DNA of 64,000 nt from Ginsengibacter sp. (GCA_039931355.1 JBDTSD010000007.1:314-64313), one strand, 5' to 3'. Positions 975 through 51,264 are shown, numbered from the stretch's first letter. Program-made: numbers and translations. The notes: a model not told the origin generated them from the sequence alone.

Positions 975-1090
975 GCCCCTCTAACTCCCCGAAGGGGAGA
1001 ACAAGGAAAGACGTGAATGAAACAAATATGTTTTTGAAATATCAAATTTTAAAGTCGCCAACTTTCAGTTCCCTCTCCTTCGGAGAGGGG
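975..1090. repeat. Inverted pair of C-rich/G-rich palindromic elements (family P)
   Basis: gcccctctaactccccgaaggggaga (975-1000) right after the nuoD stop; ccctctccttcggagagggg (1071-1090) before the nuoH start. Confidence 0.8.
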
Positions 1091-1108
1091 TTGAACTGAG
1101 GCCAAGTC

Positions 1109-2185
1109 ATGTGGAGCTTTTCTAAAATAGCAGGGTCAATTCACCAATGGTTGAATCAAACTTTCAACTCAACATTGGCAACCATTATTGAAATGGTAAT
1201 TGCAGGTGTTTGTGTTATCGGTTTATTTGCATTATTAGGATTGGTCCTGGTGATTATGGAACGTAAAGTTTCTGCATGGATACAAATAAGACTGGGGCCA
1301 AACCGGGTAGGGCCAAAAGGAATGCTTCAATCTTTAGCCGATACTGTAAAATTATTGGTAAAGGAAGGCCTCACTCCCTCCGGAGCCGACAAATTTTTAT
1401 TCAATCTCGCCCCTCTTATTGCGATGATCGTAGCCATGCTGCTGATGGCTCCGTTAGCTTTTGCAAAAGATTTCCAGATGTGGGATTTAAACATAGGTGT
1501 ATTGTATGTCTCTGCTATATCATCTGTGTCTGTCATCAGTATTTTGATCGCCGGATGGTCGAGTAATAATAAATATTCACTAATGGGAGCCATGCGTAGT
1601 GGCGCACAGATCGTGAGCTATGAATTGTCTGCGGGATTTTCTGCACTCTCAGTGGTAGTGCTGGCAGGCAGCTTAAATTTGAATACAATTGTTCAATCAC
1701 AGGCAGATGGATGGTGGATATTTAAAGGACACATCCCTGTAATGATTTCTTTTGTGATTTTTATTATTGCAGTAACCGCTGAAACAAACCGTGCGCCGTT
1801 TGATTTGGCAGAAGCGGAGTCAGAATTAACAGCCGGTTTTCATACAGAATATTCAGGGATGAAATTCGCTCTGTTTTTTCTTGCGGAATACGTAAATGTT
1901 TTTATCGTATGCGCAATTGGAGCTACGCTGTTTCTTGGCGGATGGATGCCTTTTCACATCGGGCATTGGAGTGGTTTTAATCATGTGATGGACTATATTC
2001 CATCAAGCATCTGGTTTTTTGGAAAAACATTTTTTTTAATTTTCCTGATCATGTGGTTCCGGTGGACATTCCCAAGGCTGCGTATTGACCAGCTATTAAA
2101 TCTTGAATGGAAATATTTGTTACCGATAAGTATGTTTAATATTTTATTGATAACAGCAATTGCAATATTGGGCTGGTATTTTTAG
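1109..2185 (+). CDS. nuoH: NADH-quinone oxidoreductase subunit H
   Basis: ERKVSAWIQIRLGPNRVGP, AETNRAPFDLAEAESEL, RWTFPRLRIDQ motifs; multiple TM segments. Confidence 0.97.
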   Translation: MWSFSKIAGSIHQWLNQTFNSTLATIIEMVIAGVCVIGLFALLGLVLVIMERKVSAWIQIRLGPNRVGPKGMLQSLADTVKLLVKEGLTPSGADKFLFNLAPLIAMIVAMLLMAPLAFAKDFQMWDLNIGVLYVSAISSVSVISILIAGWSSNNKYSLMGAMRSGAQIVSYELSAGFSALSVVVLAGSLNLNTIVQSQADGWWIFKGHIPVMISFVIFIIAVTAETNRAPFDLAEAESELTAGFHTEYSGMKFALFFLAEYVNVFIVCAIGATLFLGGWMPFHIGHWSGFNHVMDYIPSSIWFFGKTFFLIFLIMWFRWTFPRLRIDQLLNLEWKYLLPISMFNILLITAIAILGWYF

Positions 2186-2222
2186 AAGCCCCCGGCCCGC
2201 CTGGGGCGGGGAGAAGAAGAAG

Positions 2223-2375
2223 CACCCAGCCCCGAAGGGGAGAAAAGGCAGGTTTTAGAATATGTATACAATCTTAGACTTTTGATTAAAAAGACATTTG
2301 AATACTTCATATAATGAGCGACACTCCAAATAACCTGAAGTCTTCCCAGGCTCCCCCTTCGGGGGCGGGGGGGGC
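2223..2375. repeat. Inverted pair of family P elements; the right copy lies inside the nuoI reading frame
   Basis: cacccagccccgaaggggag (2223-2242) and ctcccccttcgggggcggggggggc (2351-2375). Confidence 0.8.
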
Positions 2376-2838
2376 TTATTTTAAAGACATTTTCAAAGCA
2401 ATAAAATCTTTATTCATTGGGCTAAGACGAACAGGATATTATTTTACCCATCATAAAGAAATCATTACACAAGAATATCCTGATAACAGGGATACTTTGA
2501 ATTTGCCTGAAAGATTTAAAGGAGAAGTTGTGATGCCACATGATGAAAACAATGAACATCGTTGCACCGGTTGTACAGCTTGTGAACTCGCTTGCCCCAA
2601 TGGAAGCATTAAAGTAATTACACAATTTGATATTACGCCTGAAGGGAAAAAGAAAAAAGCAATTGACAAATTAGTCTATCATCTCGAGCTATGTACCATG
2701 TGCAATTTATGTATTATCGCCTGCCCGTCAGACGCGATAGTAATGGCGCAAACATTTGAGCATAGTGTTTTTGATCGTAGCGAGCTAACGAAAATTTTAA
2801 ATAATCCCGGTTCAAAAATAATGGAGGGAGTAGAATAA
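2314..2838 (+). CDS. nuoI: NADH-quinone oxidoreductase subunit I with a repeat-derived N-terminal extension
   Basis: ITQEYPD motif; two 4Fe-4S motifs CTGCTACELACP and CTMCNLCIIACP. Confidence 0.95.
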   Translation: MSDTPNNLKSSQAPPSGAGGAYFKDIFKAIKSLFIGLRRTGYYFTHHKEIITQEYPDNRDTLNLPERFKGEVVMPHDENNEHRCTGCTACELACPNGSIKVITQFDITPEGKKKKAIDKLVYHLELCTMCNLCIIACPSDAIVMAQTFEHSVFDRSELTKILNNPGSKIMEGVE

Positions 2839-2840
2839 TA

Positions 2841-3398
2841 ATGAGTGGATCAACAATTATATTTTATATGCTGGCTGCGCTTACTTTAGTGAGTGGGGTG
2901 CTTGCCGTAAGTACCCGCCAAATATTCAGGGCTGCCATCTTTTTATTGTTTTCTTTAATTGGTGTTGCAGGTTTGTATTTCTGGATGCAGTACGAATTTA
3001 TTGCAGCGGTGCAAATTGTAGTTTACGTTGGTGGCATTACGGTACTGATAATATTCTCCATTTTTTTAACGCAGCAGGCGGGAGAAAAAATGCCGAAACA
3101 AAAAATGGGTCGGCAAATGTTTTCAGCATTGGCGGCCTTTTGCGGATTTGCATTGGTCATGACACAGGTGTTCCAACATACATTCACCGGAACCGATAGG
3201 CAACCGTTGGAGCAGGATGTCGCAAACATAGGAACACAAATGCTTTCAGTAAATGGTGGCGGCTATGCTTTGCCGTTTGAAGTAGTAAGCATGTTGTTGC
3301 TGGCAGCTTTAGTTGGTTGCATTGTTATAGCTATTCCTTCAAACTCCCCTAAAGCAGGAGAACTCAAATCCACAAAACTTAAAAACGAATCCGTATGA
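2841..3398 (+). CDS. nuoJ: NADH-quinone oxidoreductase subunit J
   Basis: EFIAAVQIVVYVGGITVLIIF and LPFEVVSMLLLAALVG motifs; operon position. Confidence 0.95.
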   Translation: MSGSTIIFYMLAALTLVSGVLAVSTRQIFRAAIFLLFSLIGVAGLYFWMQYEFIAAVQIVVYVGGITVLIIFSIFLTQQAGEKMPKQKMGRQMFSALAAFCGFALVMTQVFQHTFTGTDRQPLEQDVANIGTQMLSVNGGGYALPFEVVSMLLLAALVGCIVIAIPSNSPKAGELKSTKLKNESV

Positions 3399-3709
3399 TG
3401 CAACCGGGTCTCTATCATATTTTATTTATCAGTGCACTACTTTTTTTTATAGGAGTGTATGGATTTTTTACAAGAAGAAATTTAATAACAATCCTCATGA
3501 GTGTAGAGTTGATATTGAACAGCGTTAATTTGAATTTTATCGCTTTTAATAAATACCTGTGGGCAGATAAATCCGACGGCTTGTTTTTTACCATATTTAT
3601 AATTGCTATCGCCGCTGCAGAAGCTGCTGTAGCGATTGCAATCATTATTAATTTATACAGAAGCCATCATTCAATAGAAGTGGAAAGCGCAGAAGAAATG
3701 AAATATTAA
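3395..3709 (+). CDS. nuoK: NADH-quinone oxidoreductase subunit K
   Basis: RRNLITILMSVELILN, IAAAEAAVAIAI motifs. Confidence 0.96.
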   Translation: MMQPGLYHILFISALLFFIGVYGFFTRRNLITILMSVELILNSVNLNFIAFNKYLWADKSDGLFFTIFIIAIAAAEAAVAIAIIINLYRSHHSIEVESAEEMKY

Positions 3710-3755
3710 ATATTAATTCCTTTTGGATAAAACTTTAAAAACAACCAAGAACTAA

Positions 3756-5690
3756 ATGCCTGATCCGATTTATATAGCGCTGATACCTTTACTGCCCCTG
3801 GCAGCATTTGTATTGCTCGGTCTATTTGGAAGAAAATATTTTAAGAACGCATCGGGCGTTATCGCGACTGTTTTATTATTTGCGTCAACTGTTCTTGCGT
3901 TCTACACTGCTTATGGTTACTTCTTTGATTTTGGTAAAGTAAATGGTATTTATGAAAAAGTAGTGCCATTGACAATTACCTGGCTTGAATTTTCAAAAGG
4001 TGTTTCTATTGATATGGGAATCGTGTTAGATCCTATTTCGGTGATGATGCTTGTAGTGGTAACTTTTGTTTCCCTTATGGTGCACATTTATAGCCTTGCC
4101 TACATGAAAGGTGAGGAACGCTTTGCAACGTACTATTCATTCCTGGGATTGTTTACTTTCTCTATGTTGGCTTTGGTAATCTCTTCCAATATTTTTCAGA
4201 TGTATATTTTCTGGGAACTGGTTGGCATTTCTTCTTTTTTACTGATCGGTTTCTGTTATGATAAACCCAGTGCCGTTGCTGCCTGTAAGAAAGCTTTTAT
4301 CGTAACACGCTTCGCGGACCTTGGATTTTTAATTGGCATACTTGTGCTCTCTTTTTATGCAGGCACATTAGATTTTAATACACTTATTCAGCGATTAACA
4401 TTACCCGGTTCGGAAGAATTAGATACCGCCTTAGCCTCATCATTTATTGGCATCTCAGCATTGACGTGGGGAATGGTGTTGGTATTTATAGGAGCTGCCG
4501 GCAAGAGTGCAATGTTTCCTTTGCACATTTGGCTGCCCGATGCGATGGAAGGCCCAACACCCGTTTCCGCTTTGATACATGCCGCAACTATGGTGGTGGC
4601 AGGCGTTTATTTAGTGGCCAGGCTATTTCCTGTCTTTGCAATATCAGCACCGGAAGCTTTACAATTGGTCGCTTATGTTGGCACACTTTCGGCATTAATA
4701 GCCGCAATTATTGCGTGCACACAAACTGATATAAAAAGAGTCCTGGCATTTTCCACCATGTCCCAGATCGGGTATATGATGTTTGCGTTGGGTGTATCGA
4801 AATATGGTGGTGAAGACGGGTTGGGTTACACCGCTTCCATGTTCCATTTATTTACACATGCAATGTTTAAGGCGTTGTTGTTTTTAGGTGCAGGTGCGGT
4901 TATTCATTTTATTCATAGCAATGAAATGAAGGACATGGGTGGATTGAGAAAACAATTGCCGGTTACCCATATTACATTTTTAATTGCATGCCTTGCCATT
5001 TCCGGTGTGCCGCCTTTCTCCGGTTTTTTTAGCAAAGAAGAAATTTTATTGGCGGCCTGGCAACAAAACAAATTGATCTATTGGATTGCGCTATTTACTT
5101 CAGGGCTCACAGCTTTTTATATGTTCCGTTTATATTTTAGAATTTTCTGGAACAATACAAATAACGCACATGCTGAGCACCATGGTGAAGGTGGCTTTGC
5201 AATCCTGCTACCAATGATTTTACTGGCCATCGGTGCTGCTGCCGCGGGTTTTATTCCTTTTGGAAATTTTGTTACTACTGACGGAACGGCAATTGAATCG
5301 CATTTCGATTTAGCATTTTCAGCTTCGCCGGTTGCGTTAGGACTTGCGGGCATTATTGCAGCGATGTGGTTATATAAAAAACAAAATGAAAGGCCGGGAA
5401 AACTGGCTGCTTCTTTAGGTGGCTTATATAAACTTGCAGTTCATAAATTTTATATAGATGAGATCTACCTGTTTATAACAAAGAAAATTGTATTCAATCT
5501 TATTGGAAGACCAGCAGCATGGTTCGACAGGAATGTAGTAGATGGAATAGTGAATCTAACGGGAAACGTTACACTGGTGATTTCAGGGGGCATTAAAAAA
5601 TTTCAATCCGGGAAAGTACAGCAATATGCTGTTTACTTTTTGACGGGTGTTATTTTGTTGGCGGTGTTATTCATTTATGTTTTCAGGTAG
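3756..5690 (+). CDS. nuoL: NADH-quinone oxidoreductase subunit L
   Basis: FIFWELVG-like segment, GKSAMFPLHIWLPDAMEGPTPVSALIHAATMV, HLFTHAMFKALLFL. Confidence 0.97.
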   Translation: MPDPIYIALIPLLPLAAFVLLGLFGRKYFKNASGVIATVLLFASTVLAFYTAYGYFFDFGKVNGIYEKVVPLTITWLEFSKGVSIDMGIVLDPISVMMLVVVTFVSLMVHIYSLAYMKGEERFATYYSFLGLFTFSMLALVISSNIFQMYIFWELVGISSFLLIGFCYDKPSAVAACKKAFIVTRFADLGFLIGILVLSFYAGTLDFNTLIQRLTLPGSEELDTALASSFIGISALTWGMVLVFIGAAGKSAMFPLHIWLPDAMEGPTPVSALIHAATMVVAGVYLVARLFPVFAISAPEALQLVAYVGTLSALIAAIIACTQTDIKRVLAFSTMSQIGYMMFALGVSKYGGEDGLGYTASMFHLFTHAMFKALLFLGAGAVIHFIHSNEMKDMGGLRKQLPVTHITFLIACLAISGVPPFSGFFSKEEILLAAWQQNKLIYWIALFTSGLTAFYMFRLYFRIFWNNTNNAHAEHHGEGGFAILLPMILLAIGAAAAGFIPFGNFVTTDGTAIESHFDLAFSASPVALGLAGIIAAMWLYKKQNERPGKLAASLGGLYKLAVHKFYIDEIYLFITKKIVFNLIGRPAAWFDRNVVDGIVNLTGNVTLVISGGIKKFQSGKVQQYAVYFLTGVILLAVLFIYVFR

Positions 5691-5736
5691 AATTTCTGAA
5701 TCTATAAGTATTGAAAAGTGAGATCACTTAAAAGGT

Positions 5737-6013
5737 AATTGCAATGACCTTTCCCAAAGGGATGCATTGCATAGGTCATGGAATAAGAACAGAGTAATAA
5801 TTTTCTTTAGCCAAAAATATTTTTGGCTAAAGCCAATATAAATTTTTAAAATCATCCACGATCTAAAGATCGTGGTAAATGGAATAATGTAAGGAAGTTT
5901 GAAAGATAATTGCCATGACCTTTAGGTCGTAGGATAATAACAAAGTAGTAATTGGCTTTAGCCAAAATAAATTTAGAATCACGCACGATCTATAGATTGT
6001 AGTATTGGAATAA
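5737..6013. repeat. Composite REP-like cluster: two degenerate tandem units with several hairpins
   Basis: Hairpins ctttagccaaaaa-ta-tttttggctaaag (5805-5832), ccacgatc-taaa-gatcgtgg (5856-5875), ccatgacc-ttta-ggtcgtagg (5913-5933); each unit starts taattgcNatgacc and ends tggaataat. Confidence 0.75.
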
Positions 6014-6055
6014 TGCGGGCAATCATCGAACTAATATTTTGAATAAGAAAAACAG

Positions 6056-7534: not shown

Positions 7535-7546
7535 TAAAATTTTAGA

Positions 7547-8947: not shown

Positions 8948-8954
8948 CTTCATC

Positions 8955-9344
8955 ATGGCTATAAATAAAAATCATCAATTCGAAGAATTGGATGGCGTTA
9001 AATGCGGTATTGTAGAAAAAAATGTAGCACCCGAAAGAGTCGCCTTTTTGAAAAGTTTACTGGAGCTTAATGGTTACACAGTAGTATCAGTTCCTTCGCC
9101 ACTACCTAAAGCAGCACCTGTAAGTGTTCCAAAGGAAGGCGAAACAGCACCTCCTGGTGTTCCGCCCGAAACGACTCCTGAAACATTTACGGTTGGTGTA
9201 ACAGATTATACGTTCAACCCAATCAATGCCATATTTGGAAGGCTGCTAAAAACAGAGAACGGGCATATCGTTACGCTGGCTTATTGGCATCAGGAAGAGT
9301 CCGTTAGTCATGATGAAATTCCCTATTACGAAACCGGGAAATGA
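8955..9344 (+). CDS. Hypothetical protein closing the nuo operon
   Basis: 129-aa ORF 7 bp after nuoN; two globular segments joined by a Pro-rich linker. Confidence 0.75.
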   Translation: MAINKNHQFEELDGVKCGIVEKNVAPERVAFLKSLLELNGYTVVSVPSPLPKAAPVSVPKEGETAPPGVPPETTPETFTVGVTDYTFNPINAIFGRLLKTENGHIVTLAYWHQEESVSHDEIPYYETGK

Positions 9345-9399
9345 CATAGCCATATTATTTCATAAGCTTTCCATCTTCCGCTAATACACAATAACCAGG

Positions 9400-24043: not shown

Positions 24044-24864
24044 TTAAGCCCATAGAGATAAAACAGAAGGCAAGAGAAGCGGGCGTTCGTGACCAGCAGA
24101 TAGAAAAGGACTATGTGCTTTCATGGATATTGAATGGTGTTGCACAACATGAACAGCTTTCAAAAATAATTGTATTTAAAGGTGGGACTGTTTTAAAGAA
24201 AATTTATTTCGAAGACTATCGGTTTTCTGAAGACCTTGATTTTACATTACTCAACAATGAAATAACCAATGAACAAATATTTACCTGGTTCAAAGAAACG
24301 TTTGAATATATTTTGGAAGAAGCAAACATAGTGCTCGGAATTATTAACCCCGATAGTAATCGGGGCAGGCCCGAACATGAAGATGGCGGTATCAATTTTT
24401 ACATCAGCTATACCGGTCCGCTTGGCGGGCAAGGCAATAATAAAAGAGTAAAAGTTGATATTTCCAGAAGTGAAAAACTGGAATTTGAACCGGTATTGAA
24501 AACGGGTATCATTGGCTATTCTGATTTAGAAGAACATCAACTATTATGTTATTCGCTTGAAGAAGTGTTGGTAGAAAAAATGCGGACAGTTATGCAGCGG
24601 ATGCAGGCAAGAGATTTTTATGACATCTGGTTTTTATTGGAACACCATGGGATGGATGCAGCATTTCATATAAATGAATTTGCAAAGAAATGTGCCAGCA
24701 AGAATTTGAACTACCTTGATTTCCCTAAAAAATTAGCCGAACGGTTACCACAATACAAAGGACGTTGGAAAAGCTCCATGAATGAACAGATAAAAAACTT
24801 ACCGGATTTTGAACAGGTAGAAAGAGAAGTGCAAAGACATTTAAAGAAATTGAAATTACAATGA
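24040..24864 (+). CDS. abiEii: Type IV TA toxin, AbiEii nucleotidyltransferase
   Basis: EKDYVLSWIL, FKGGTVLKKIYF, RFSEDLDF, EKMRTV, ARDFYDIW; ATGA overlap with abiEi. Confidence 0.92.
   Translation: MIKPIEIKQKAREAGVRDQQIEKDYVLSWILNGVAQHEQLSKIIVFKGGTVLKKIYFEDYRFSEDLDFTLLNNEITNEQIFTWFKETFEYILEEANIVLGIINPDSNRGRPEHEDGGINFYISYTGPLGGQGNNKRVKVDISRSEKLEFEPVLKTGIIGYSDLEEHQLLCYSLEEVLVEKMRTVMQRMQARDFYDIWFLLEHHGMDAAFHINEFAKKCASKNLNYLDFPKKLAERLPQYKGRWKSSMNEQIKNLPDFEQVEREVQRHLKKLKLQ
24347..24364. repeat. cccgatNNNNatcggg palindrome (family Q) in frame inside abiEii
   Basis: ccccgatagtaatcgggg within the segment encoding NPDSNRG. Confidence 0.7.
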
Positions 24865-33836: not shown

Positions 33837-34253
33837 TTATTTTAAAAAAGACTCAACTGCAAGCATATATCCCTTAATCCCAAAACCAAAAATAGTGCCT
33901 GCGCATTTGGCCGTAATGTGTGAGTATTTCCTGAATTCTTCCCGTGCTTCTATATTGGAAATATGTACTTCTACAACCGGCACTTTTATCGCGGCTATTG
34001 CATCGCCAATGGCAATTGACGTATGAGTATAAGCTCCGGCATTTAAAATAATACCGTCCATTTTTAAAGCAGCGCGTTGTAGTTCATTTATTAATTCACC
34101 TTCAACATTACTTTGATAATAATCAAAATCAATGTTCTCATATTTCTTACGGATCTTATTGAAATATTGTTCGAAAGATTCCCCTCCATAAATGTCAGTT
34201 TCCCTTGATCCAATAAGGTTCAAATTTGGGCCGTTTATTATTGCAATTTTCAT
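33837..34253 (-). CDS. aroQ: Type II 3-dehydroquinate dehydratase (start placed at ATG 34253)
   Basis: INGPNLNLIG, QSNVEGELI, NAGAYTHTSIAI, VEVHISNI. Confidence 0.96.
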   Translation of the reverse strand: MKIAIINGPNLNLIGSRETDIYGGESFEQYFNKIRKKYENIDFDYYQSNVEGELINELQRAALKMDGIILNAGAYTHTSIAIGDAIAAIKVPVVEVHISNIEAREEFRKYSHITAKCAGTIFGFGIKGYMLAVESFLK

Positions 34254-34254
34254 A

Positions 34255-34277
34255 CCCTCTAACTCCCTCAAGGGAGA
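34255..34277. repeat. Family P element abutting the aroQ start
   Basis: ccctctaactccctcaagggaga, same consensus as 975-1000. Confidence 0.75.
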
Positions 34278-35534: not shown

Positions 35535-35560
35535 AAAAAAAAGCCCCGTTTGAACGGGGC
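35535..35560 (-). terminator. Terminator of the alpha ribosomal operon
   Basis: Minus strand gccccgt-tcaa-acggggc-tttttttt after the rplQ stop. Confidence 0.85.
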
Positions 35561-36181: not shown

Positions 36182-36238
36182 GACTGTTGTTTTATAGGTT
36201 ATACCGTGTCAGGAATTATAACCTTTATTATTAATTGC

Positions 36239-36271
36239 CCTTCGATCCTTCGACAGGCTCAGGATGACAGG
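36239..36271. repeat. gtcatcctgagcctgtcgaagg-type REP element
   Basis: ccttcgatccttcgacaggctcaggatgacagg between rpoA and rplQ. Confidence 0.6.
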
Positions 36272-36301
36272 CTTTAGGTGACTTTACTAATGTTATCAAG
36301 T

Positions 36302-36328
36302 CTCCCTTTCGGGGAGATTTAGAGGGGC
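36302..36328. repeat. Family P element after the rpoA stop
   Basis: ctccctttcggggagatttagaggggc. Confidence 0.8.
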
Positions 36329-36331
36329 TAC

Positions 36332-37327
36332 TTATTCGTCGTCAAGCTTTAGCTTGCTAAGATCCATTCCGAAACCAAGACCTCTTTCATTCAGCACCTG
36401 CTCAATTTCACTTAAAGACTTCTGCCCGAAGTTTCTAAACTTCATAAGGTCTTCCTGCTCATACTGTACTAACTCACTCAATGAATTAATCTTAGCTGCT
36501 TTCAGGCAATTGAATGCTCTTACCGACAGGTCAAGATCTTCCAATGGCGTTTTCAATACTTTACGAAGTTGTAAAGTTTGTTCATCTACAAGGTCTTCTT
36601 TCTTCTCTTCTTTATTATCGAAAGTGATATTCTCATCAGTAATGATCATCAGGTGTTGGATCAATATTCTTGATGCCTGCTTCACTGCTTCTTCAGGGTG
36701 AATGGTACCATCGGTAACCACATCCATCACGAGCTTTTCGAAATCTGTTCTTTGCTCAACCCTTGTATTTTCTATGCTGTATTTTACATTTTTGATTGGC
36801 GTGTAAATAGCATCAACTGCTATATATCCAAAATGTGAGCTCTTTTCCCTGCTCTCTTCTGCGGGTACATAACCACGGCCTTTACCAATCGTAATTTCGA
36901 TATCCAGCTTTGCTGAGCTATCCATTGTACAAATCAATAATTCCGGGTTCATTACTTCATATGATGGAGACGCATCGCCTATCATACCTGCAGTGAATTC
37001 AGATTTATTTTTTAAAGAAAGACTTATTTTTTCTGTGCCTGCATCCTGGTCAGTTTTCTTTTTAAAACGTACCTGCTTCAGGTTAAGAATAATTTCTGTG
37101 ACATCTTCTGTTATGCCTTTGATAGTAGCAAATTCATGATCAGCTCCGGCGATGCTTATGCCTACAATAGCATAGCCTTCCAAAGAATTAAGCAATACCC
37201 TGCGCAAAGCATTGCCAATGGTTACACCGTAACCTGGTTCTAACGGACGGAACTCGAATTGTGCTTCAAAATCAGTACTTTTCTGGAGAACGATTTTGTC
37301 TGGCTTTACAAAATTTAAAATGGCCAT
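36332..37327 (-). CDS. rpoA: RNA polymerase alpha subunit
   Basis: PLEPGYGVTIGNALRRVLL, DAIYTPI, LSVRAFNCLK, RNFGQKS. Confidence 0.98.
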   Translation of the reverse strand: MAILNFVKPDKIVLQKSTDFEAQFEFRPLEPGYGVTIGNALRRVLLNSLEGYAIVGISIAGADHEFATIKGITEDVTEIILNLKQVRFKKKTDQDAGTEKISLSLKNKSEFTAGMIGDASPSYEVMNPELLICTMDSSAKLDIEITIGKGRGYVPAEESREKSSHFGYIAVDAIYTPIKNVKYSIENTRVEQRTDFEKLVMDVVTDGTIHPEEAVKQASRILIQHLMIITDENITFDNKEEKKEDLVDEQTLQLRKVLKTPLEDLDLSVRAFNCLKAAKINSLSELVQYEQEDLMKFRNFGQKSLSEIEQVLNERGLGFGMDLSKLKLDDE

Positions 37328-37346
37328 TTTTTATTTTGTTTTTGAT

Positions 37347-37427
37347 ACCCCAAACCCCTAAAGAGGCTTAAAGCGTGTTATAAATTAATGTTCAAAAAAA
37401 CCTCATTCCCCTTTAGGGGTTAGGGGC
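37347..37427. repeat. Inverted pair of family P elements between rpsD and rpoA
   Basis: accccaaacccctaaagaggct (37347-37368) and tcccctttaggggttaggggc (37407-37427). Confidence 0.8.
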
Positions 37428-37431
37428 GGGT

Positions 37432-38037
37432 TTACTTACTGTACAATTCCACGATAAGTTGTTCCTTAATATTTTCCGGAACACTTTCTCTTTCGGGATA
37501 TGCAATGAACGTGCCCTGCATATTTGCTTCGCTCCATTCAATCCAATTAAATTTTGGATTCTTTGGCCGAAGATTTCCTGTAATATTAGTATTGCCAGAA
37601 GTTTTTTCTTTCAAACTAATTACATCTCCCGGTTTCAAAGAGTAGGATGGAATATTCAACACGCTATCATTAACGGTAATGTGTTTATGTGAAACAAGTT
37701 GCCTCGCAGCCTGCCTGCTGGGAGCGATTCCCATACGGAAAACTGTATTATCAAGCCGTGCTTCAAGAAGCTTTATCAGGTTTTCACCGGTTACACCTTT
37801 ACGGCGTGATGCTTCATTAAATGTGTTGCGGAATTGTTTCTCCAATACACCGTAAGTGTATTTGGCTTTTTGCTTTTCGCGAAGTTGAAGTGCATATTCA
37901 CCAAGGCTTTTGCGCTTGCGTGCTGCACCGTGCATTCCGGGAGGATTGCTGTTTTTAGTTAGCCACTTGCCGTTGCCGGTAATGGGTTCACCAAAAATCC
38001 TGGAAATCTTGGTTTTTGGTCCTGTGTAACGAGCCAT
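37432..38037 (-). CDS. rpsD: 30S ribosomal protein S4
   Basis: [38 protein letters not shown]. Confidence 0.98.
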
Positions 38038-38055
38038 AATTGTTATTGATTTTTT

Positions 38056-38104
38056 AGTGTCGGTATATCATCATTAAAAATCAAAAATTAATGATACACC
38101 CGGT
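38056..38104 (-). promoter_or_regulatory. Candidate structured leader upstream of rpsD
   Basis: Minus strand gggtgtatcattaa...ttaatgatgatatacc hairpin. Confidence 0.4.
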
Positions 38105-38113
38105 TATTAAAAA

Positions 38114-38183
38114 TATGTACGATGTTTGATGTACGATGTGCAATGTAACATCGCAGATCTCACCTGGTATGTCGTACATTCTA
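38114..38183. repeat. Short tandem/inverted repeat patch (gtacgatgt / tcgtacat)
   Basis: tatgtacgatgtttgatgtacgatgt ... gtatgtcgtacatt. Confidence 0.55.
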
Positions 38184-38597
38184 CTAAACTCTTCTTTTCT
38201 TGGGAGGCCTGCAGCCATTATGAGGTAAAGGAGTCACATCTTTTATCATTACTATTTCAATACCTGATTGTGATAAAGACCGGATAGCACCTTCACGCCC
38301 TGAGCCCGGCCCCTTTACAAAAACATCAACACGCTTCAAGCCGGCATCCAATGCTACTTTCGCTGCATCAGCTGCTGCCATTTGGGCTGCATAAGGGGTA
38401 TTCTTTTTAGAACCCCTGAAACCCATTTTACCGGCAGATGACCAGGAAATTACCTGCCCCTGCTTGTTGGTTAGACTAATAATAATGTTGTTGAAACTTG
38501 CAACGATGTGTGCGTCTCCGTAATGCTCAACTTTTACAATTCTTTTTTTAGAGGATGCTTTCGCACCTGTTGCTTTTTGATTGGAAGCTTTTGCCAT
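38184..38597 (-). CDS. rpsK: 30S ribosomal protein S11
   Basis: [38 protein letters not shown]. Confidence 0.98.
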
Positions 38598-38630
38598 AAT
38601 TTGAACTAATAGGTAATCTTTAAAAATTTA

Positions 38631-38648
38631 CCCCGATAAAATCGGGAC
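38631..38648. repeat. Family Q palindrome, intergenic
   Basis: ccccgataaaatcgggac. Confidence 0.65.
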
Positions 38649-38743
38649 TGAATCAACCCTCCTTCCGGCTTACTGGAGATCGGTGTTAATTCAAAAAAAA
38701 CAGTAAGCCTTATTTATATTTTCCCTTACGGATACTGTCCTTG

Positions 38744-38764
38744 TCCCCCTTCAGGGGCCAGGGG
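38744..38764. repeat. Family P element after the rpsM stop
   Basis: tcccccttcaggggccagggg. Confidence 0.75.
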
Positions 38765-38765
38765 T

Positions 38766-39146
38766 TTATTTCTTAGGTGCTTTCTTTTTACCAGCAACTG
38801 TCTTACGCTTTCCTTTACGTGTGCGGCTGTTAGTACGGGTACGCTGCCCACGAAGTGGCAAACCTTTACGATGTCTCAACCCACGATAACAGGCAATATC
38901 GAGCAATCGCTTAATGTTTGTTTGTGTTTCACTACGAAGTGCTCCTTCTGTTTTGAACTCACCGCTTATTACATTTCTTATAGCAGTCTGTTCTTCATCA
39001 TTCCACTCATTTACCTTCTTGTCATAATTTACATTAGACTTATCCAGAATGTAACGGGCAGTGGAAGGACCTATACCATATATATAAGTAAGTCCGATAA
39101 CACCTCTTTTGTTTTTTGGTAAATCAATACCGGCAATACGAGCCAT
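38766..39146 (-). CDS. rpsM: 30S ribosomal protein S13
   Basis: [38 protein letters not shown]. Confidence 0.98.
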
Positions 39147-39187
39147 CTGTGTCTTTAATTTTTAATTATCAATTTCTTTTCTTCTTT

Positions 39188-39231
39188 CCCCCTTTAGGGG
39201 TTCCGGGGTATCCCCCTTTAGGGGTTAGGGG
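39188..39231. repeat. Two tandem family P elements after the rpmJ stop
   Basis: ccccctttaggggttccgggg and tccccctttaggggttagggg. Confidence 0.85.
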
Positions 39232-39232
39232 T

Positions 39233-39349
39233 TTATCCCTGCCTTTGCTTAAAGCGTGGATTTTTTTTGTTAATTACGTACAATCTTCCTTTACGCCTAA
39301 CTATTTTACAGTCAACGCTTCTTTTTTTTATAGATGCCCTTACTTTCAT
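39233..39349 (-). CDS. rpmJ: 50S ribosomal protein L36 (absent from the ORF track)
   Basis: Hand translation: [38 protein letters not shown]. Confidence 0.97.
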
Positions 39350-39381
39350 ATTCTTTGTTTTATTAAGCTTTTGTTAAGCTT

Positions 39382-39600
39382 CTATTTATATCTAAAAATG
39401 ATTCGCCCTCTTGAAAGATCATAAGGACTCATTTCAACGCCGACTTTGTCTCCAGGTAGAATTCTGATGTAATGCATGCGCATTTTACCGGAAATAGTCG
39501 CCAAAATTTCATGCCCATTTTCAAGCTTTACCCTGAACATCGCATTGGATAAGGCTTCCAGGATCGTACCGTCTTGTTTAATTAATGCTTGTTTGGCCAT
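39382..39600 (-). CDS. infA: Translation initiation factor IF-1
   Basis: [37 protein letters not shown]. Confidence 0.98.
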
Positions 39601-39616
39601 ACTATTTTTGGGAGCG

Positions 39617-39624
39617 CAAAGATA
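39617..39624 (-). promoter_or_regulatory. -7 promoter box for the infA-rplQ operon
   Basis: Minus strand tatctttg(c), 16 bp upstream of infA. Confidence 0.7.
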
Positions 39625-39687
39625 AGAGATAATAATTTAATTTTACAAAAAAAGCGCTACCTATTACCTAATCATTCAAAAACCATT

Positions 39688-40365
39688 ATGAGACTAAAAT
39701 CAATCGCCCTCTTTTCTTTATTGGTTCTCATTCTCTCCTGTAAAAAAAATGACAACACAACCAACCCACCACAGAATGATACCTATTTAACCAGTTCTTC
39801 GGGAAGTAGCTGGAGTTATCATGTAATTGATAACTCAGGTGCCGTGCCCCCGAGTGACTATACACTTACGGCAACATCTGCAGACACAAGCATCAGTGGA
39901 AAAAGCTATCACATTTTCACCAATTCTGCAGGTGGCAATCAATATATGACTGTCATCGGTCATGATTATTACCAATTTGATTCATTGCCTACCGGAGTAA
40001 GCAATGCGATAATTGACAGGCTCTATCTAAAGGATAATGTAGCTGTCGGCGGCACCTGGAGCCAAAATGTAAATGTTGATATACCTGGCTCAACCATTCC
40101 TATACCTTTCACTGTTTCCAATTCTATAGCTGAAAGTGGAATATCAAGAACGGTACACGGTGTTGTTTATAATGATGTAATTCACGTTTCCACGCAGATA
40201 AGCTCTGCTTTTATTCCGCCTTCATCACTTACTACGAGTATTGATACCTGGTACGCAAAAAAATATGGACTGATTGAAAATACAAGCGTCGTTCATTTAG
40301 ATTTTTTCGGAATAGTGCAGGATGTAAATACAGCAACTACACTAACGGCTGCTACACTGAAATAA
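39688..40365 (+). CDS. Predicted lipoprotein (start placed at ATG 39688)
   Basis: Signal peptide with lipobox ILSC followed by KKNDN; beta-rich body ending WYAKKYGLI. Confidence 0.8.
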   Translation: MRLKSIALFSLLVLILSCKKNDNTTNPPQNDTYLTSSSGSSWSYHVIDNSGAVPPSDYTLTATSADTSISGKSYHIFTNSAGGNQYMTVIGHDYYQFDSLPTGVSNAIIDRLYLKDNVAVGGTWSQNVNVDIPGSTIPIPFTVSNSIAESGISRTVHGVVYNDVIHVSTQISSAFIPPSSLTTSIDTWYAKKYGLIENTSVVHLDFFGIVQDVNTATTLTAATLK

Positions 40366-42588: not shown

Positions 42589-42870
42589 ATGAATTCAAAG
42601 GTTATTGCATTACCGGCGAGAAGAAAACAACCCGTGCTTTCCAGGCTTATGATTGTTTCACTAATAGAGGCTGGCGTACGCCAGCACAGGGAAATTCCAT
42701 TTGGCCCGGCAGACATAAAGGGCGGCTCTTTCGGCGCACTGATCACAAGGGGCCTCGTAGTGCTTACAGACGTGGTGGTAAAAAACCGTACGCAATCTTT
42801 GTGGCAGGTAACCCCGGAAGGATTTGAGATATTACGCGGGCTGGGTGTAAACCTGTATGATTATAATTAA
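42589..42870 (+). CDS. Small hypothetical protein, possibly winged-helix (ATG 42589)
   Basis: ALITRGLV and WQVTPEGFEIL resemble a wHTH wing; precedes the CheB/CheR gene. Confidence 0.55.
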   Translation: MNSKVIALPARRKQPVLSRLMIVSLIEAGVRQHREIPFGPADIKGGSFGALITRGLVVLTDVVVKNRTQSLWQVTPEGFEILRGLGVNLYDYN

Positions 42871-42958
42871 AGTAAATTTTCGCCTGCCAATAGTACATAG
42901 ATTGCTTTCAGCATTTTTGAAAGCCTACTAATAACGTTAGCCTATACCTGCACGACAA

Positions 42959-46591: not shown

Positions 46592-46970
46592 AATGAATTC
46601 TAATTGTATGATTGATTATTAGGTATTTTAATGTGAATCAGTTAACGAACCCTTAAATATTCCCCTCCAATTTTTATAAGTATTACAACAGAGCAGTATT
46701 TGTTAGCCGCCACATTAGCTTTAATAGCTTCTCCCCTTTTGAAAAGAATATACAGGTGGTTTTAGTAAATTGAGTAAGGACAATCCTCCAATTCTGCCTT
46801 TTATTTTATCGCATGGAACTTGTTAATTTATTACCCTAAGGGGCTGATAATTCCATTATATGACGTCTTATTGTAAGGGCATGATAGTTGATATTTTAAA
46901 GAAAAGTGAAAAGCAAATAGTCATTAATCTTTGAAGCATTTAAAACCTCTAACTAGTAAAATAAATAATC

Positions 46971-48122
46971 ATGAAAAATATATTAAAATTCTTTTTTGCA
47001 TTACTAATTACCGTTGCATCGGTAAGTTATACAAATGCACAAGTCAGTATTTCAGTAAGAATAGGCCCGCCGGCTCTGCCTGTTTATGAGCAGCCATATG
47101 TGCCCGGCGATGGATACATGTGGGTGCCTGGTTATTGGGCTTACGATGGCGGATATTATTGGGTTCCCGGCATGTGGGTATTACCACCAGAAACCGGGTT
47201 TCTGTGGACGCCTGGTTATTGGGGCTTTACAAATTCGTTCTATAGATGGCACTCGGGCTATTGGGGAAGAAATGTAGGATACTATGGTGGAATAAATTAT
47301 GGACACGGCTATGGCGGCCGCGGTTATTATGGCGGCGAATGGCGCGGAAGAAGTTTCAGGTATAATACCGCTGTAACCCGCGTAAATACTACTGTTATTC
47401 ATAATACTTACATTAACAGAACCGTGGTGAATAACAATACTATTATAAACAAAAACAGGGCGAGCTATAACGGTAACGGTGGAGTAGCGGCCAGACCCAC
47501 AAGGCAGGAAGAAGTGGCAGTAAAAGAAACGCATGTAAGGCCAACATCCTTACAGTTATCACATCAAAGTGAAGCTAAAGCAGATAAGCGACAGTTTGCA
47601 TCAGCAAATGATGGTCGCCCCGCAAAGCTTATAGAGGAAGGGAATGCAAATAATAATAATCATGCTGCTATAGAGAAAGCTCGTGTAACACACAATGATA
47701 ATAATAATCATAACGCAGCGGATAACAGGCCTCGTGTGGCCACCAAAGAGCCAACACAACAAAGTGCAACCAACCAACAAATTCTCCGGGACAAGGCAAA
47801 ACAGGATGCAGCGAGACAGCAACAAATAAATGCCGCAAGAGCTGACGATCAAACAAAGGAAGCTGTACAAAATCAGCAGCGTCAGCAACAGGCAAGGGTT
47901 GACAATCAAAGAAAAGAGGCAATACAAAATCAGCAGCGTCAGCAACAGGTAAACGCTGACAATCAAAAAAGGCAACAGGTGCAGAACCAGCAGCGTCAGC
48001 AGCAGGTAAATGCCAACAATCAAAGAAGGCAACAGGTGCAGAACCAGGAGCGGGTGCAGCAAAGGAATAATCCAGGTAAGCAAGTTCAGCCTCGTGCGCA
48101 AGAGAACAGGCGTAAGAAATAA
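46971..48122 (+). CDS. Secreted YXWGXW-repeat protein with a Gln-rich tail
   Basis: Signal peptide, GPPALPVYEQP, YMWVPGYW, WVPGMW, WTPGYW; QNQQRQQQ repeats. Confidence 0.88.
   Translation: MKNILKFFFALLITVASVSYTNAQVSISVRIGPPALPVYEQPYVPGDGYMWVPGYWAYDGGYYWVPGMWVLPPETGFLWTPGYWGFTNSFYRWHSGYWGRNVGYYGGINYGHGYGGRGYYGGEWRGRSFRYNTAVTRVNTTVIHNTYINRTVVNNNTIINKNRASYNGNGGVAARPTRQEEVAVKETHVRPTSLQLSHQSEAKADKRQFASANDGRPAKLIEEGNANNNNHAAIEKARVTHNDNNNHNAADNRPRVATKEPTQQSATNQQILRDKAKQDAARQQQINAARADDQTKEAVQNQQRQQQARVDNQRKEAIQNQQRQQQVNADNQKRQQVQNQQRQQQVNANNQRRQQVQNQERVQQRNNPGKQVQPRAQENRRKK
47867..48048 (+). repeat. 57-bp (19-aa) coding tandem repeat, about 3 copies
   Basis: acaaaatcagcagcgtcagcaacagg... recurs with period 57. 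Confidence 0.85.
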
Positions 48123-48143
48123 AAGAACTATACTTGATAAAAG

Positions 48144-48177
48144 GAAGGCTTTATACAATGTTATAAGGCCTTTTTTT
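48144..48177 (+). terminator. Probable terminator
   Basis: aaggctttatac-aat-gttataaggcctt followed by a T-run. Confidence 0.55.
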
Positions 48178-48593
48178 ATGAGATGCATAAGGCGAACTAA
48201 AAGAGATATTGTTGAGTCTGATTACTAATTGAGATAATGACACCTATACTATATTTTTAGAAAAGCATTTATACCTAACGCAAAGGGCTACACGAAACAG
48301 GATACAATTTCTTTTATTCGTCTTTTCAATTTATTCTTTTCGGATATTTTGAGCCAACATGTGTAATGTTTTTTTTGGGGAGTAGCCTTTTTACGTTATA
48401 GCGAATATGGCTGATTCAAAAAAGGTGTTTTACCCCTTTGAATTGTTGAAAGGGTTTATTAGTTTAGGAGGGTCTAACCTGATTAAAAGCGCCCAACAAC
48501 AAGTCTTATTTATCTAATTTTCAAAGAAATAACCGGAACTTTTACTTACCTCAGTACGAAACTTTCAGGAAAAATAGTTGTCAAGTATTTTTT

Positions 48594-49121
48594 TTGTTAG
48601 TTAAAATTCATAACGTGAACTATATTATCAAATCAATTTGTGTGGCTTTATTGTCTACAATAATTTTAAGTAATGCCTTCGGTCAACATCGTATTGAACT
48701 AAGAATAAATCCGGCTACCGGATTATTAGCCGACCCTGGTACCGAAATAGTGTTACCCGGTGAATACGTGTTGTGGAGCATAAAACCTGGCGAAAATATT
48801 AGTTGGTTTCGGATCGAAGGTGCTAATCCTCCATGCAACAACTTACCGGCCAGTGGCGGTTATTCCCGGGAGAGAGGAGATGTCAGGCCAAGAGAGCCTC
48901 GTCGCGATTGGAAGTACAGAATAATTTATGTGCTCACAACAAGTCCCGAAAGAAAACAATTAGATCCCAAAATTGCTATCCGGCCAACGAGAGACATAAA
49001 TAATTCAATATTAATGTTCTTTTTAGGAGCCATAGTTCCTTTACTAACATCTATATTATTTTACCGAAAATGGAAGGCCGCCAAATCTGAGCTTGAAAAA
49101 CTTAGTACACCAAAATCATAA
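48594..49121 (+). CDS. Hypothetical membrane-anchored exported protein (start uncertain)
   Basis: Signal-like N-terminus, beta-rich domain ending LDPKI, C-terminal TM plus RKWK. Confidence 0.6.
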   Translation: MLVKIHNVNYIIKSICVALLSTIILSNAFGQHRIELRINPATGLLADPGTEIVLPGEYVLWSIKPGENISWFRIEGANPPCNNLPASGGYSRERGDVRPREPRRDWKYRIIYVLTTSPERKQLDPKIAIRPTRDINNSILMFFLGAIVPLLTSILFYRKWKAAKSELEKLSTPKS

Positions 49122-49224
49122 TATTTGTAACTTATCAGCCAAACGCAGGTGGGTCCTGGAGAAATGTCTTGAGCTCTATAATTATCCGCAAAATACGGTC
49201 ACAAATTTCTGTTCACCATCAGCC

Positions 49225-51264
49225 ATGTGTAATAAAAAAACCTATTTCCTTTTATTAGCCTTCTGCTTATTTACCATGTACCGTGGTTTTGCACAGGATC
49301 AAAAAGTAGCTGATAGTCTTAAAATTATTTACCAGCGGGATACAGCAGAAGGCATCTCAAAGTACAATTTACTTATAGATCTTTCTTTCAATGAAGTAAG
49401 GGATTTAAAACAAGGTGTGCGGTATGCGGAAGAATTGATAAGTCTATCCCGACAGGCAGGTGACGACAAATACCTTAGTGCCGGTTATTTTTGGAAGGGG
49501 ACGAAAGAAAGATTGCTTGGCAACCTGGATACGGCGCTAAATGCACTCTTTAAAAGCGCTGAAATAGCGAAACGATCACATCTTTCTAAAAGTGAAGGAA
49601 ACGCTTATGAAGAAGTAGCAAACATTTACTCAGTCGCAAAAAACCACCAGACCGCGATGCTTTATTACAATAAAGCTATAACTGCGATGCGGCAATCTAA
49701 TGATTCAAATAGCCTGGCTTCTGCACTGGCTAACGCAGGTGATGAATTCCTTAATATTAAAAAATATGATTCTGCATTTTCGTATTTAAACGAAGCAAAG
49801 ATCATTTTCGATAATTTGAATTACCTGACTGGAAAAGTCTATTGCCTCGGTAATCTTGGTGTAGTGTATGCTAATCTTGGCAATAATGATCTTGCCGAAA
49901 AAAATATAAATGACGCCATTCGCATATTGGAAGAATCACAGGATTATTATCCAATCTGCGACTATCTTCTTCCTATGGCTGAGGTATATTCCGATAAAGG
50001 AGACATGCAGACAGCATTGAATTATGCACTAAGGAGTTTGAGCCTGGCTGACAAATACAAGTTAAAAGAACAGATTGCCAATGCTAACCTTAAAGTGTCA
50101 GAGCTATATGAAAAAATGGGAAACCTGGGCGAAGCTCTTAAACATTATAAAAATTATATAGCCTACAGGGATAGCCTTAGTAATATTAAATCCGTGCAGG
50201 CTATGTATAATTTGCAGTCCCGGTTTGATAACTCCCAGCATCAGGCCCAGGTGAAATTGCTCAATCAACAGGAAAGAAATCAGCGAAATTTATTGATTTC
50301 CCTGATGATCATATTTGGTTTAACGGTAATAACACTTGGCATCATATTGAGAAATAATAAGAGTAAACAAAAAGCCTATAAAATTTTAGATAAACAAAAG
50401 CAGGAAACAGATAAAGAAAAAGCAAAGGCGGAAGATGCGCTTAGAGAATTGCAGGCAACGCAAATGCAATTAATGCATCGCGAACGTATGGCTTCACTCG
50501 GCGAGCTTACCGCCGGCATTGCCCACGAGATACAAAACCCACTCAACTTTGTAAATAACTTTTCAGATGTGAATGCTGAGTTGTTGGATGAACTTCAACA
50601 GGAATTAAAAAAAGGAAACGTAGGTGAAGCATTATCTATTTCAAATGGCATCATAGAAAACGAGCAAAAAATAAATCATCATGGCAAGCGGGCAGATGCT
50701 ATTGTAAAAGGTATGATGCAACATTCGCGGTCGAGTACAGGGCATACAGAACCAACTGATATAAATGCATTGGCCAGTGAATATTTAAAACTCAGCTATC
50801 ACGGCCTCCGTGCAAAAGACAAAAGTTTCAATGCAACCATGGATACCCATTTTGATGAGAATCTTCCAAAAGTTAATATCGTGCCGCAGGACATAGGCAG
50901 GGTATTATTGAATTTATGCAACAATGCGTTTTACTCGGTGACAGAAAAAAAGAAGGACCCCCAGCCCCTAAAGGGGAGTGAAGAATACGAACCAAAAGTA
51001 ACAGTGACCACAAAGGCTCTAAAGCCCCCTTTAGGGGGTTTGGGGGTAGAAATTTCTGTAAAAGATAATGGCACCGGCATTCCCCAAAAAATAACTGATA
51101 AAATATTCAACCCGTTTTTCACCACCAAGCCTGCGGGGCAGGGCACGGGTCTGGGGCTATCGCTCAGTTACGACATCGTAAAAGCCCATGGTGGTACCAT
51201 TACCATCAACACCAGGGAAGGTGAATTTGCTGAGTTTATTATCCGCATTCCTGCAAATACATAA
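49225..51264 (+). CDS. TPR-sensor histidine kinase (start placed at ATG 49225)
   Basis: Signal peptide, TPRs, TM, ASLGELTAGIAHEIQNPLNF, DNGTGIP, FFTTKP, GTGLGL. Confidence 0.93.
   Translation: MCNKKTYFLLLAFCLFTMYRGFAQDQKVADSLKIIYQRDTAEGISKYNLLIDLSFNEVRDLKQGVRYAEELISLSRQAGDDKYLSAGYFWKGTKERLLGNLDTALNALFKSAEIAKRSHLSKSEGNAYEEVANIYSVAKNHQTAMLYYNKAITAMRQSNDSNSLASALANAGDEFLNIKKYDSAFSYLNEAKIIFDNLNYLTGKVYCLGNLGVVYANLGNNDLAEKNINDAIRILEESQDYYPICDYLLPMAEVYSDKGDMQTALNYALRSLSLADKYKLKEQIANANLKVSELYEKMGNLGEALKHYKNYIAYRDSLSNIKSVQAMYNLQSRFDNSQHQAQVKLLNQQERNQRNLLISLMIIFGLTVITLGIILRNNKSKQKAYKILDKQKQETDKEKAKAEDALRELQATQMQLMHRERMASLGELTAGIAHEIQNPLNFVNNFSDVNAELLDELQQELKKGNVGEALSISNGIIENEQKINHHGKRADAIVKGMMQHSRSSTGHTEPTDINALASEYLKLSYHGLRAKDKSFNATMDTHFDENLPKVNIVPQDIGRVLLNLCNNAFYSVTEKKKDPQPLKGSEEYEPKVTVTTKALKPPLGGLGVEISVKDNGTGIPQKITDKIFNPFFTTKPAGQGTGLGLSLSYDIVKAHGGTITINTREGEFAEFIIRIPANT
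50958..51046. repeat. Inverted pair of family P elements, both in frame inside the kinase ATPase domain
   Basis: cccccagcccctaaaggggag (PQPLKG) and ccccctttagggggtttggggg (PPLGGLG). Confidence 0.85.

Follow-up and report, generated by a model that had tools for sequence, protein, structure and literature searches.

A G:C hairpin repeat that faces gene ends and brackets DUF559 nuclease genes in a Chitinophagaceae genome

Repeats of the repetitive extragenic palindromic (REP) type are among the commonest non-coding features of bacterial genomes. To our knowledge, nearly all that is known of REP biology comes from Proteobacteria and concerns a single enzyme family, the REP-associated tyrosine transposases (RAYTs). 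As described, repeats of the REP and REPIN (REP doublets forming hairpins) class lie downstream of genes, prefer inverted dimers with poorly conserved spacers, supply stop codons from their termini, include in-frame copies and bracket one nuclease gene (PMC3733652, PMC3116915). Here we analyse a C/G-rich palindromic repeat in a 64,000-nucleotide stretch of Ginsengibacter sp. DNA (contig C7:314-64313; hereafter the window) from a 5.12-Mb Chitinophagaceae metagenome-assembled genome of 38.7% G+C, which comprises 365 contigs and is 94% complete. An initial annotation of the window had described the repeat as a family resembling REPs or miniature inverted-repeat transposable elements (MITEs), shaped by transcription-linked insertion or selection. 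The family is real and lineage-restricted to Chitinophagaceae and some relatives, and its partner enzyme is probably not a RAYT but a DUF559 nuclease.

Orienting and stacking all 102 copies in the genome gave the consensus AA-CCCC-NNN-CCCC-(TAAA/TGAA/GAA)-GGGG-AA(C). We refer to the 5' spare C-block and its spacer as the head, to the CCCC-loop-GGGG part, with its 4-5 bp G:C stem, as the hairpin, and to the end opposite the head as the tail. TAAA is the most frequent loop (48 copies), followed by GAA (22), TGAA (17) and TGGA (8), and some subfamilies extend by ~10 conserved bases, for example GGGGAACTAAGTTAGT or GGGGAACTTAGATC. Examining the flanks for target-site duplications revealed A or AA on both sides of ~70% of copies and longer flank repeats only in tandem arrays.

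The window is densely populated with this repeat. The initial annotation had counted at least 14 copies, and the number holds at ~13-14 (nine strict cores plus four to five variants), with ~13 sites marked by clusters of C4 and G4 runs. Its single-nucleotide spacing between C-blocks did not survive, as that literal pattern finds only two sites and the true spacer is 2-4 nt. The two-block pattern CCCC-N(2-4)-CCCC-N(3-4)-GGGG has nine matches (seven distinct sites) in the window versus 0.01 expected from shuffles, and the core CCCC-N(3-4)-GGGG has 10 versus 0.69, so the predicted enrichment over shuffled sequence is borne out. Genome-wide, oriented C-first cores number 102 versus 12 for the G-first mirror; nine of the 102 strict cores fall in the window versus 1.3 expected (this expectation and the binomial p values below are our own arithmetic). 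A reversed, non-complemented control pattern had no matches in the 31 + 301 genomes scanned. Using our own gene calls, which rest on open reading frames (ORFs) and codon-usage scoring and assign 87% of the genome to 4218 genes, we located 69 of the 102 strict cores between genes and 33 within called ORFs.

The repeat is patchy among close relatives. This genome has 53 matches to CCCCNNNCCCCTRAAGGGG; within the genus, 8 of 18 genomes carry 2-18 matches to the repeat pattern, and in other genera of the family 5 of 16 carry it, with up to 32 matches. It also occurs in a few genomes of the same order or class and in none of ~225 genomes from other families of the phylum, setting aside G028, a member of another family whose 17 matches proved to be a coding repeat in paralogous ~700-aa genes. 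Literature searches with exact core strings returned chance occurrences only, and the Rfam 15 covariance models found nothing at gathering score in the window and only chance-level matches in 36200-39700. An exact-match 19-mer scan of public metagenomes yielded a further 120 independent contigs for comparison.

A single rule unifies the placement of these copies: the head faces the nearest ORF end, usually touching it. We assessed this using ORF ends only, independently of start calls, by asking whether an ORF of >=80 aa in the C-first sense ends from 30 nt before to 20 nt after the start of the head. In this genome the head meets a stop in 37 of 96 full elements versus 6 for the tail (two-sided binomial p ~2e-6); among those 37 cases, 8 abut exactly and in 8 the ORF ends inside the element. 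In the metagenome contigs, a stop lies at the head in 42 of 92 copies versus 3 at the tail (p ~1e-9), and 17 of the 42 stops are the element's own TAA, giving proteins that end in ...P* or ...PNP*. Starts follow the same pattern. The ATG of a long ORF lies <=25 nt beyond the G-rich end of the head in 8 cases versus 2 beyond the tail in this genome, and in the metagenome contigs an ATG lies <=7 nt beyond the head in 9 copies (GGGGTATG, GGGGCATG) and beyond the tail in none. Across 233 metagenome copies, the median distance from the head is 5 nt to a faced stop (n=91) and 13 nt to a faced start (n=50), and the tail lies ~100 nt from the other gene. Only 6 of the 233 are in divergent spacers, none of them abutting a gene. 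Orientation relative to gene direction is thus non-random, as the initial annotation had proposed, both genome-wide (37:6) and in the metagenome contigs (42:3). We also observed that MenD orthologues from two metagenomes (loci L241 and L279) end within the element, as …ENP* and …TPNP*.

Two simple causes of this polarity can be set aside. Replication-strand bias was rejected because the rule holds relative to gene direction both in the nuo operon, on the plus strand, and in the ribosomal operon 35 kb away, on the minus strand; it therefore follows genes and not replication. Transcription-linked insertion, suggested by the initial annotation as one option, fails in its simple form: both orientations occur on one transcript, C-first after stops and G-last before starts, so a bias for the transcribed strand cannot be the cause.

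The polarity instead arises because units sit exactly at ORF ends and pairs are set head-outward. Inverted neighbours are head-outward by 17:1 in this genome and by 37:0 in the metagenome contigs. Such doublets join a stop to a start in 14 cases and a stop to a stop in 7, with no start/start case. Some fill an entire intergenic gap, running from TAA|CCCC to GGGGT|ATG, as at contig C2:92977-93083, downstream of a DeoC/LacD-family aldolase gene (assigned by Pfam), and in the nuoD-nuoH spacers of relatives L127 and L133. Doublet spacers are 30-157 nt long and A+T-rich, and they share no similarity with one another. The paired halves are predicted to form stems of 19-26 bp, in RNA or single-stranded DNA, that loop out the spacer, with minimum free energies (MFEs) of -33 to -71 kcal/mol and z scores of -2.3 to -10 against mononucleotide shuffles. 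None of the hairpins is followed by a U-tract; the sense strand continues AAC or AGA and the hairpins lie inside operons, so they lack the mark of intrinsic terminators. We also noted ordered tandem arrays with a fixed flank, of five copies with a period of 37 (C82:4995-5162) and three copies with a period of 27 (C2:20156-20228). These suggest local amplification by slippage or unequal exchange.

The same head-outward arrangement brackets genes for a nuclease. Among small ORFs lying between two copies we found one recurrent family, represented by four genes of 120-127 aa that match PF04480 (DUF559) with E values of 1e-30 to 1e-36 and scores of 101-124 bits versus a curated cut-off of 20.6; the contig-C8 protein also matches PDB 3hrl (E 1.4e-13). 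The C8 gene (4744-5118) sits between a C-first core at 4680 and a G-last core at 5193. The loop of its upstream copy supplies the stop of a GH77 glucanotransferase (...TPNP*), and its downstream copy lies 5 nt before the next ATG. The suggestion that the element might flank a RAYT or some other nuclease gene is upheld here in its second form. Approaching the question from the protein, we searched for homologues (2092 found) and took 17 loci via 11 look-ups: C-first cores lie upstream in 16 of 17 and G-last cores downstream in 14 of 17, with the opposite form on neither side. Most of the 17 are one syntenic locus, GH77 - DUF559 - MR_MLE, and others follow phosphoenolpyruvate carboxylase. Loci reached through the repeat have further locations, such as downstream of trpB, and at least seven distinct contexts of DUF559 occur overall, counting the in-frame domains described below. 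In one metagenome contig, the GH77/MR_MLE locus holds two tandem DUF559 genes (L337:309-1042).

The DUF559 domain also occurs in frame within larger proteins. It occupies residues 596-701 of a leucyl-tRNA synthetase (LeuRS; C36:25237-28794) and residues 228-335 of an IcmF-like B12 mutase (C68:16704-20459; both coordinates on the reverse strand), and in each it is flanked by related, head-outward palindromes. The palindromes encode peptides of the form PSPQAERG... and SPSPGGGRG.... A published classification groups DUF559 with Vsr and a homing endonuclease from a group I intron (PMC3424549); in the present loci no intron or intein appears to be involved, although no search was aimed at their signatures. 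Judged by title and abstract, none of 25 papers mentioning DUF559 concerns hairpin repeats or gene-boundary cassettes.

We favour, with a probability of roughly 55%, a REP/REPIN-like hairpin repeat system whose partner is not a RAYT but the DUF559 nuclease. Its unit is a single-stranded head (AA-CCCC-NNN) followed by a G:C hairpin (CCCC-TRAA/GAA-GGGG), occurring in four forms: solo, in tandem arrays, as in-frame coding inserts and as head-outward inverted pairs. Because that same pair brackets DUF559 genes, the cassette of hairpins plus nuclease, a Vsr-like enzyme of the PD-(D/E)XK type, can be read as the family's partner unit, a counterpart of the REP-flanked RAYT that uses a different enzyme. 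Read along a transcript, a stop is followed by the C-rich head that touches it and then by the hairpin, and at a start the hairpin comes first and its G-rich head touches the ATG. The linkage suggests that the nuclease moves or maintains the hairpins, selection would keep only the boundary-hugging copies, and transcribed stems might affect mRNA stability, processing or coupling. Placement at ORF ends may reflect selection against breakage of ORFs and leaders, a real use of the hairpin (3'-end protection or a stem bridging stop and start), or both.

The copies that we recognize in the window, in coordinates of the whole stretch, are as follows.
976..999, plus strand: variant CCCC-TCTAACT-CCCC-GAA-GGGG-AG, C-first in the nuoD sense, beginning 6 nt past the nuoD stop (967-969).
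1071..1103, plus strand: related subfamily CCCTCTCC-TTCG-GAGAGGGG-TTGAACTGAGGCC, G-rich end last, ending 5 nt before the nuoH ATG (1109).
2189..2211, plus strand: variant hairpin CCCCC-GG-CCCGCC-TGG-GGCGGG-G, beginning 3 nt past the nuoH stop (2183-2185).
2223..2242, plus strand: CACCC-AG-CCCC-GAA-GGGG-AG, C-first, left half of the nuoH-nuoI doublet.
2353..2374, minus strand: right half of the nuoH-nuoI doublet, G-last in the nuoI sense, read in frame as APPSGAGGA within an extension at the N terminus of NuoI.
34255..34276, plus strand: degenerate CCC-TCTAACT-CCC-TCAA-GGG-AG, head 1 nt away from where gene 33837..34253 of the minus strand starts (CAT, 34251-34253).
36302..36327, minus strand: variant CCCC-TCTAAATCT-CCCC-GAAA-GGG-AG, C-first in the rpoA sense, 4 nt past the rpoA stop.
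37348..37366, plus strand: slightly decayed CCCC-AAA-CCCC-TAAA-GAGG, right half of the rpsD-rpoA doublet, G-last in the rpoA sense, ending 20 nt before the rpoA ATG.
37408..37431, minus strand: ACCCG-CCCC-TAA-CCCC-TAAA-GGGG, left half of the rpsD-rpoA doublet, C-first, abutting the rpsD stop (37432-37434).
38745..38765, minus strand: A-CCCC-TGG-CCCC-TGAA-GGGGG, C-first, 1 nt past the rpsM stop (38766-38768).
39188..39232, minus strand: C-first tandem of two copies, immediately past the rpmJ stop (39233-35; L36 by Pfam).
50956..50979, plus strand: copy E1, translated in frame as DPQPLKGS within the HATPase_c domain of a histidine kinase.
51022..51048, minus strand: in-frame copy E2, inverted relative to E1, read as KPPLGGLGV.

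These positions largely agree with the initial annotation, which had placed C-first copies after the stops of nuoD, nuoH, nuoJ, rpmJ (twice), rpsM, rpsD and rpoA; all stand except nuoJ, which has no copy at its stop. G-last copies at starts are likewise present for nuoH (as the related subfamily), nuoI (at codons 14-21) and rpoA (20 nt upstream). The fourth, assigned to aroQ, actually lies inside an ORF encoding a TPR-HisKA-HATPase_c kinase of 679 aa, which is followed by an FGGY kinase gene on the opposite strand. The window contains no transposase, as had been stated.

Comparing orthologous sites across 30 genomes of the genus, we found the element retained in related species, with varying copy number and visible decay. 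The four closest relatives (~80% nucleotide identity) keep the element after rpsM, after rpsD and before rpoA, with one to three copies per site, some of them decayed, and more distant genomes have unrelated hairpins or other repeat families at these positions. The nuo spacers have the same history. The spot after nuoD (nuoD identity from Pfam) is occupied in relatives L122, L123 and L125, and the element type found before nuoH lies there in six genomes of the genus.

An N-terminal extension of NuoI with a translated copy (MSDTPNNLKSSQAPPSGAGGAYFKD) is confined to the element-bearing clade, other genomes starting MFIVKYIKEVF. At the kinase sites E1 and E2, the 29 homologues compared are each shorter by exactly 5 + 5 residues. 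The 48-nt segment separating the two copies is native kinase coding sequence, encoding the EEYEPKVTVTTK strand, so the halves were not inserted as one block; kinase paralogues and orthologues carry neither copy, the second only, or both, which suggests stepwise gain. Among seven genes of the clade, four-fold third positions in the 18-nt core of E1 are 92% identical (66/72 pairwise) versus 48% in the flanks (69/143), in related sequences whose pairs are not independent. This indicates that the E1 core has been maintained at the nucleotide level, by selection or by conversion. Together with copies lying 1-7 nt from starts, such synonymous-site conservation argues that the elements are more than just tolerated. 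Separately, TrpB orthologues at loci L259 and L302 have element-encoded N-terminal extensions (…PLQGLGVNSPLGVGG…).

Several observations weigh against a nuclease-partnered repeat system. Mobility of the repeat is putative, and we know of no PD-(D/E)XK nuclease that acts alone in transposition. Doublet spacers are unrelated to each other and to the non-coding ends of the cassette, so doublets are not demonstrably its deletion derivatives; when we looked for such a derivation directly, similarity between spacers and cassette ends was not beyond chance. In the kinase, the native coding spacer and the paralogues with E2 only mean that the halves arrived separately. Most relatives have their DUF559 orthologue at one syntenic locus, and DUF559 might just as well be cargo or a doublet-targeting parasite. 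From its linkage to the repeat, the nuclease could be cast as a mobiliser, as a maintainer (for example through mismatch-directed nicking of extruded hairpins) or as a doublet parasite.

The leading alternative, though we consider it unlikely, is that the repeat is primarily a functional RNA device. Hairpins would protect mRNA 3' ends, and head-outward pairs would form a 19-26 bp stem joining an upstream stop to a downstream start, resulting in translational coupling, start masking or an RNase III site; the 8-nt head would serve as a spacer, holding the hairpin immediately clear of the ribosome. Heads do abut stops and starts only in spacers that are co-directional or convergent, and hence transcribed, with few divergent copies and none of them abutting. 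The whole-gap doublets, the predicted long-range stems, the nucleotide-level conservation within the kinase coding region and the absence of U-tracts, hence of termination inside operons, all fit this idea, as does the presence of other hairpins at the same spots in relatives lacking the family. However, the family is patchy within one genus (8/18 genomes), orthologous sites vary in copy number and copies decay, and tandem arrays, in-frame inserts in unrelated proteins and linkage to a nuclease point to a repeat with its own dynamics. Moreover, stems of the same length would result from the opposite pair arrangement, which leaves the 54:1 preference for head-outward pairs unexplained by the stem alone. 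Our comparison of G:U with C:A mismatches, a test of RNA-level selection, had too small a sample (n=12) to weigh on either side.

To a more speculative, REPtron-like scheme we give similarly low odds. A vertically inherited, Vsr-like DUF559 enzyme might maintain or spread the G:C hairpins; one route would be nicks at T:G mismatches within extruded hairpins, letting palindromes self-repair in an AT-rich genome. Head-outward pairs might have been co-opted as mRNA clamps from stop to start that serve translational coupling or processing.

A classical RAYT-mobilised REP/REPIN family, its RAYT missing from a fragmented assembly, is doubtful. The anatomy is REP-like overall, the assembly in 365 contigs leaves room for a lost gene at 94% completeness, and two RAYTs of relative G110 are flanked by a simpler hairpin with a similar core, TCACCCC-TTC-GGGGTGA. 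The element, though, lacks the GTAG or CGTC tag that defines REPs (PMC3733652). This genome encodes four intact Y1 (PF01797, RAYT-type) genes, all flanked by other palindromes (GTTCCTACGGAAC, GCCCTGAAAGGGC, GCCACGGCCTTCAGGCCGTGGC) that are GTAG-type REPs. A RAYT flanked by our element, which the initial annotation had raised as a possibility, was thus found at 0 of 4 loci here, and none of 17 loci in 5 relatives has the full element around it. In four other genomes rich in the repeat, RAYT genes likewise lie without the full element. Among 523 kb of metagenome DNA bearing the element, only one RAYT turned up, with a different REP. One such separate family even occurs in the window: the nuoL-nuoM spacer (5760-6050) holds two tandem ~151-nt units of a different palindromic family (TTTAGCCAAAAATATTTTTGGCTAAAGCC plus CCACGATCTAAAGATCGTGG), the same as the RAYT-flanking GCCACGGCCTTCAGGCCGTGGC family. 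These units match the flanks of the RAYT at C21:39452-39793, placing a classical REP-RAYT family in the same operon. Among other candidate mobilisers, a full-length insertion sequence was sought between head-outward copies 0.5-4.5 kb apart, where only host genes were present (MenD, LysA, TrpB, phosphoglycerate mutase and permeases), and a regular-expression search found no GIY-YIG nucleases.

Equally doubtful is the notion that DUF559 is a small selfish gene landing preferentially inside existing doublets while hairpins spread by another route: some insertion sequences do target REPs, cassette non-coding ends are unrelated to doublet spacers, most orthologues share one syntenic locus and one locus has two tandem genes, but the joint in-frame occurrence of nuclease domain and flanking palindromes inside LeuRS and the IcmF-like protein is more readily understood if the two move together.

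Other features of the window lie outside the hairpin family. The rpsK-rpsD spacer (38095-38175) contains palindromic GTACGATGT/ACATCGTAC repeats, of which 23-30 nt stretches match many genomes of the genus at 93-100%, marking another dispersed repeat family. In the rpsM-rpsK spacer (38600-38735), a ~130-nt leader (…AAGGCTTAC…CCAGTAAGCCGGAAGGAGGGTTGATTCAG…stem…AAAGATTACCTAT) is conserved in nearly all of the 30 genus genomes compared; Rfam has no match for it, and it is a candidate ribosomal-protein leader. ORF 46971..48122 contains, at 47841-48027, a Gln/Asn-rich repeat encoded by three 57-nt units in tandem that are 77-84% identical. Finally, short G:C palindromes with longer loops occur at 24348-24365 and 35544-35559 (CCCCGATAGTAATCGGGG, CCCCGTTTGAACGGGG).

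If a DUF559-partnered repeat system is the right reading, a Bacteroidota lineage would show a REP-type lifestyle with a different, uncharacterised nuclease that has thousands of homologues, and DUF559 would gain a testable substrate. The positional rule itself is very clean, with the head touching a stop or start codon. Annotators gain an explanation for unexpected ...PNP* tails, for extended N termini and for loops or domains that conserved enzymes carry in frame. Whether hairpins at gene boundaries adjust the expression of operons could also be studied simply with this family, in bacteria that translate without Shine-Dalgarno sequences.

Set against known systems, the family most resembles REP/REPIN-RAYT systems (REPtrons; bacterial interspersed mosaic elements, BIMEs). 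It shares with them a 20-35 nt hairpin repeat in ~100 copies, placed mainly behind genes where neighbours are co-directional or convergent; single units, ordered tandem clusters and inverted doublets, the last folding into long hairpins around spacers of low conservation; stop codons provided by the repeat's termini; a few copies read in frame within genes; and a single linked nuclease gene that the repeats bracket and that is inherited vertically. It differs in that the repeat ends in AA-CCCC and GGGG-AA without a GTAG/CGTC tag, the bracketed enzyme is a DUF559/Vsr-like PD-(D/E)XK nuclease and not a Y1 HUH transposase, and doublet spacing is broad (30-157 nt) rather than discrete. Whereas REPIN doublets are described as randomly distributed in extragenic space, the head here touches ORF ends far more tightly. 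The initial REP/MITE-like label therefore stands for the short hairpins, inverted doublets, tandem arrays, in-frame copies and patchy lineages; the tag and the cognate RAYT both fail, so we do not file the family as a REP/REPIN member. With MITEs (Correia/NEMIS, ERIC, RUP) it has in common inverted repeats of 19-32 nt at the ends, transcription together with adjacent genes and long hairpins predicted in the RNA, but it has no conserved internal sequence or size, and no parent DDE transposase was found. Like Rickettsia palindromic elements, it places in-frame palindromes in conserved proteins (histidine kinase, NuoI, TrpB, LeuRS and the IcmF-like mutase); those elements are 100-150 bp long and belong to another lineage, whereas the inserts here add 5-11 residues or a whole nuclease domain. 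The bracketed genes themselves, matching PF04480 and PDB 3hrl, resemble the Vsr / DUF559 / I-Bth0305I clade.

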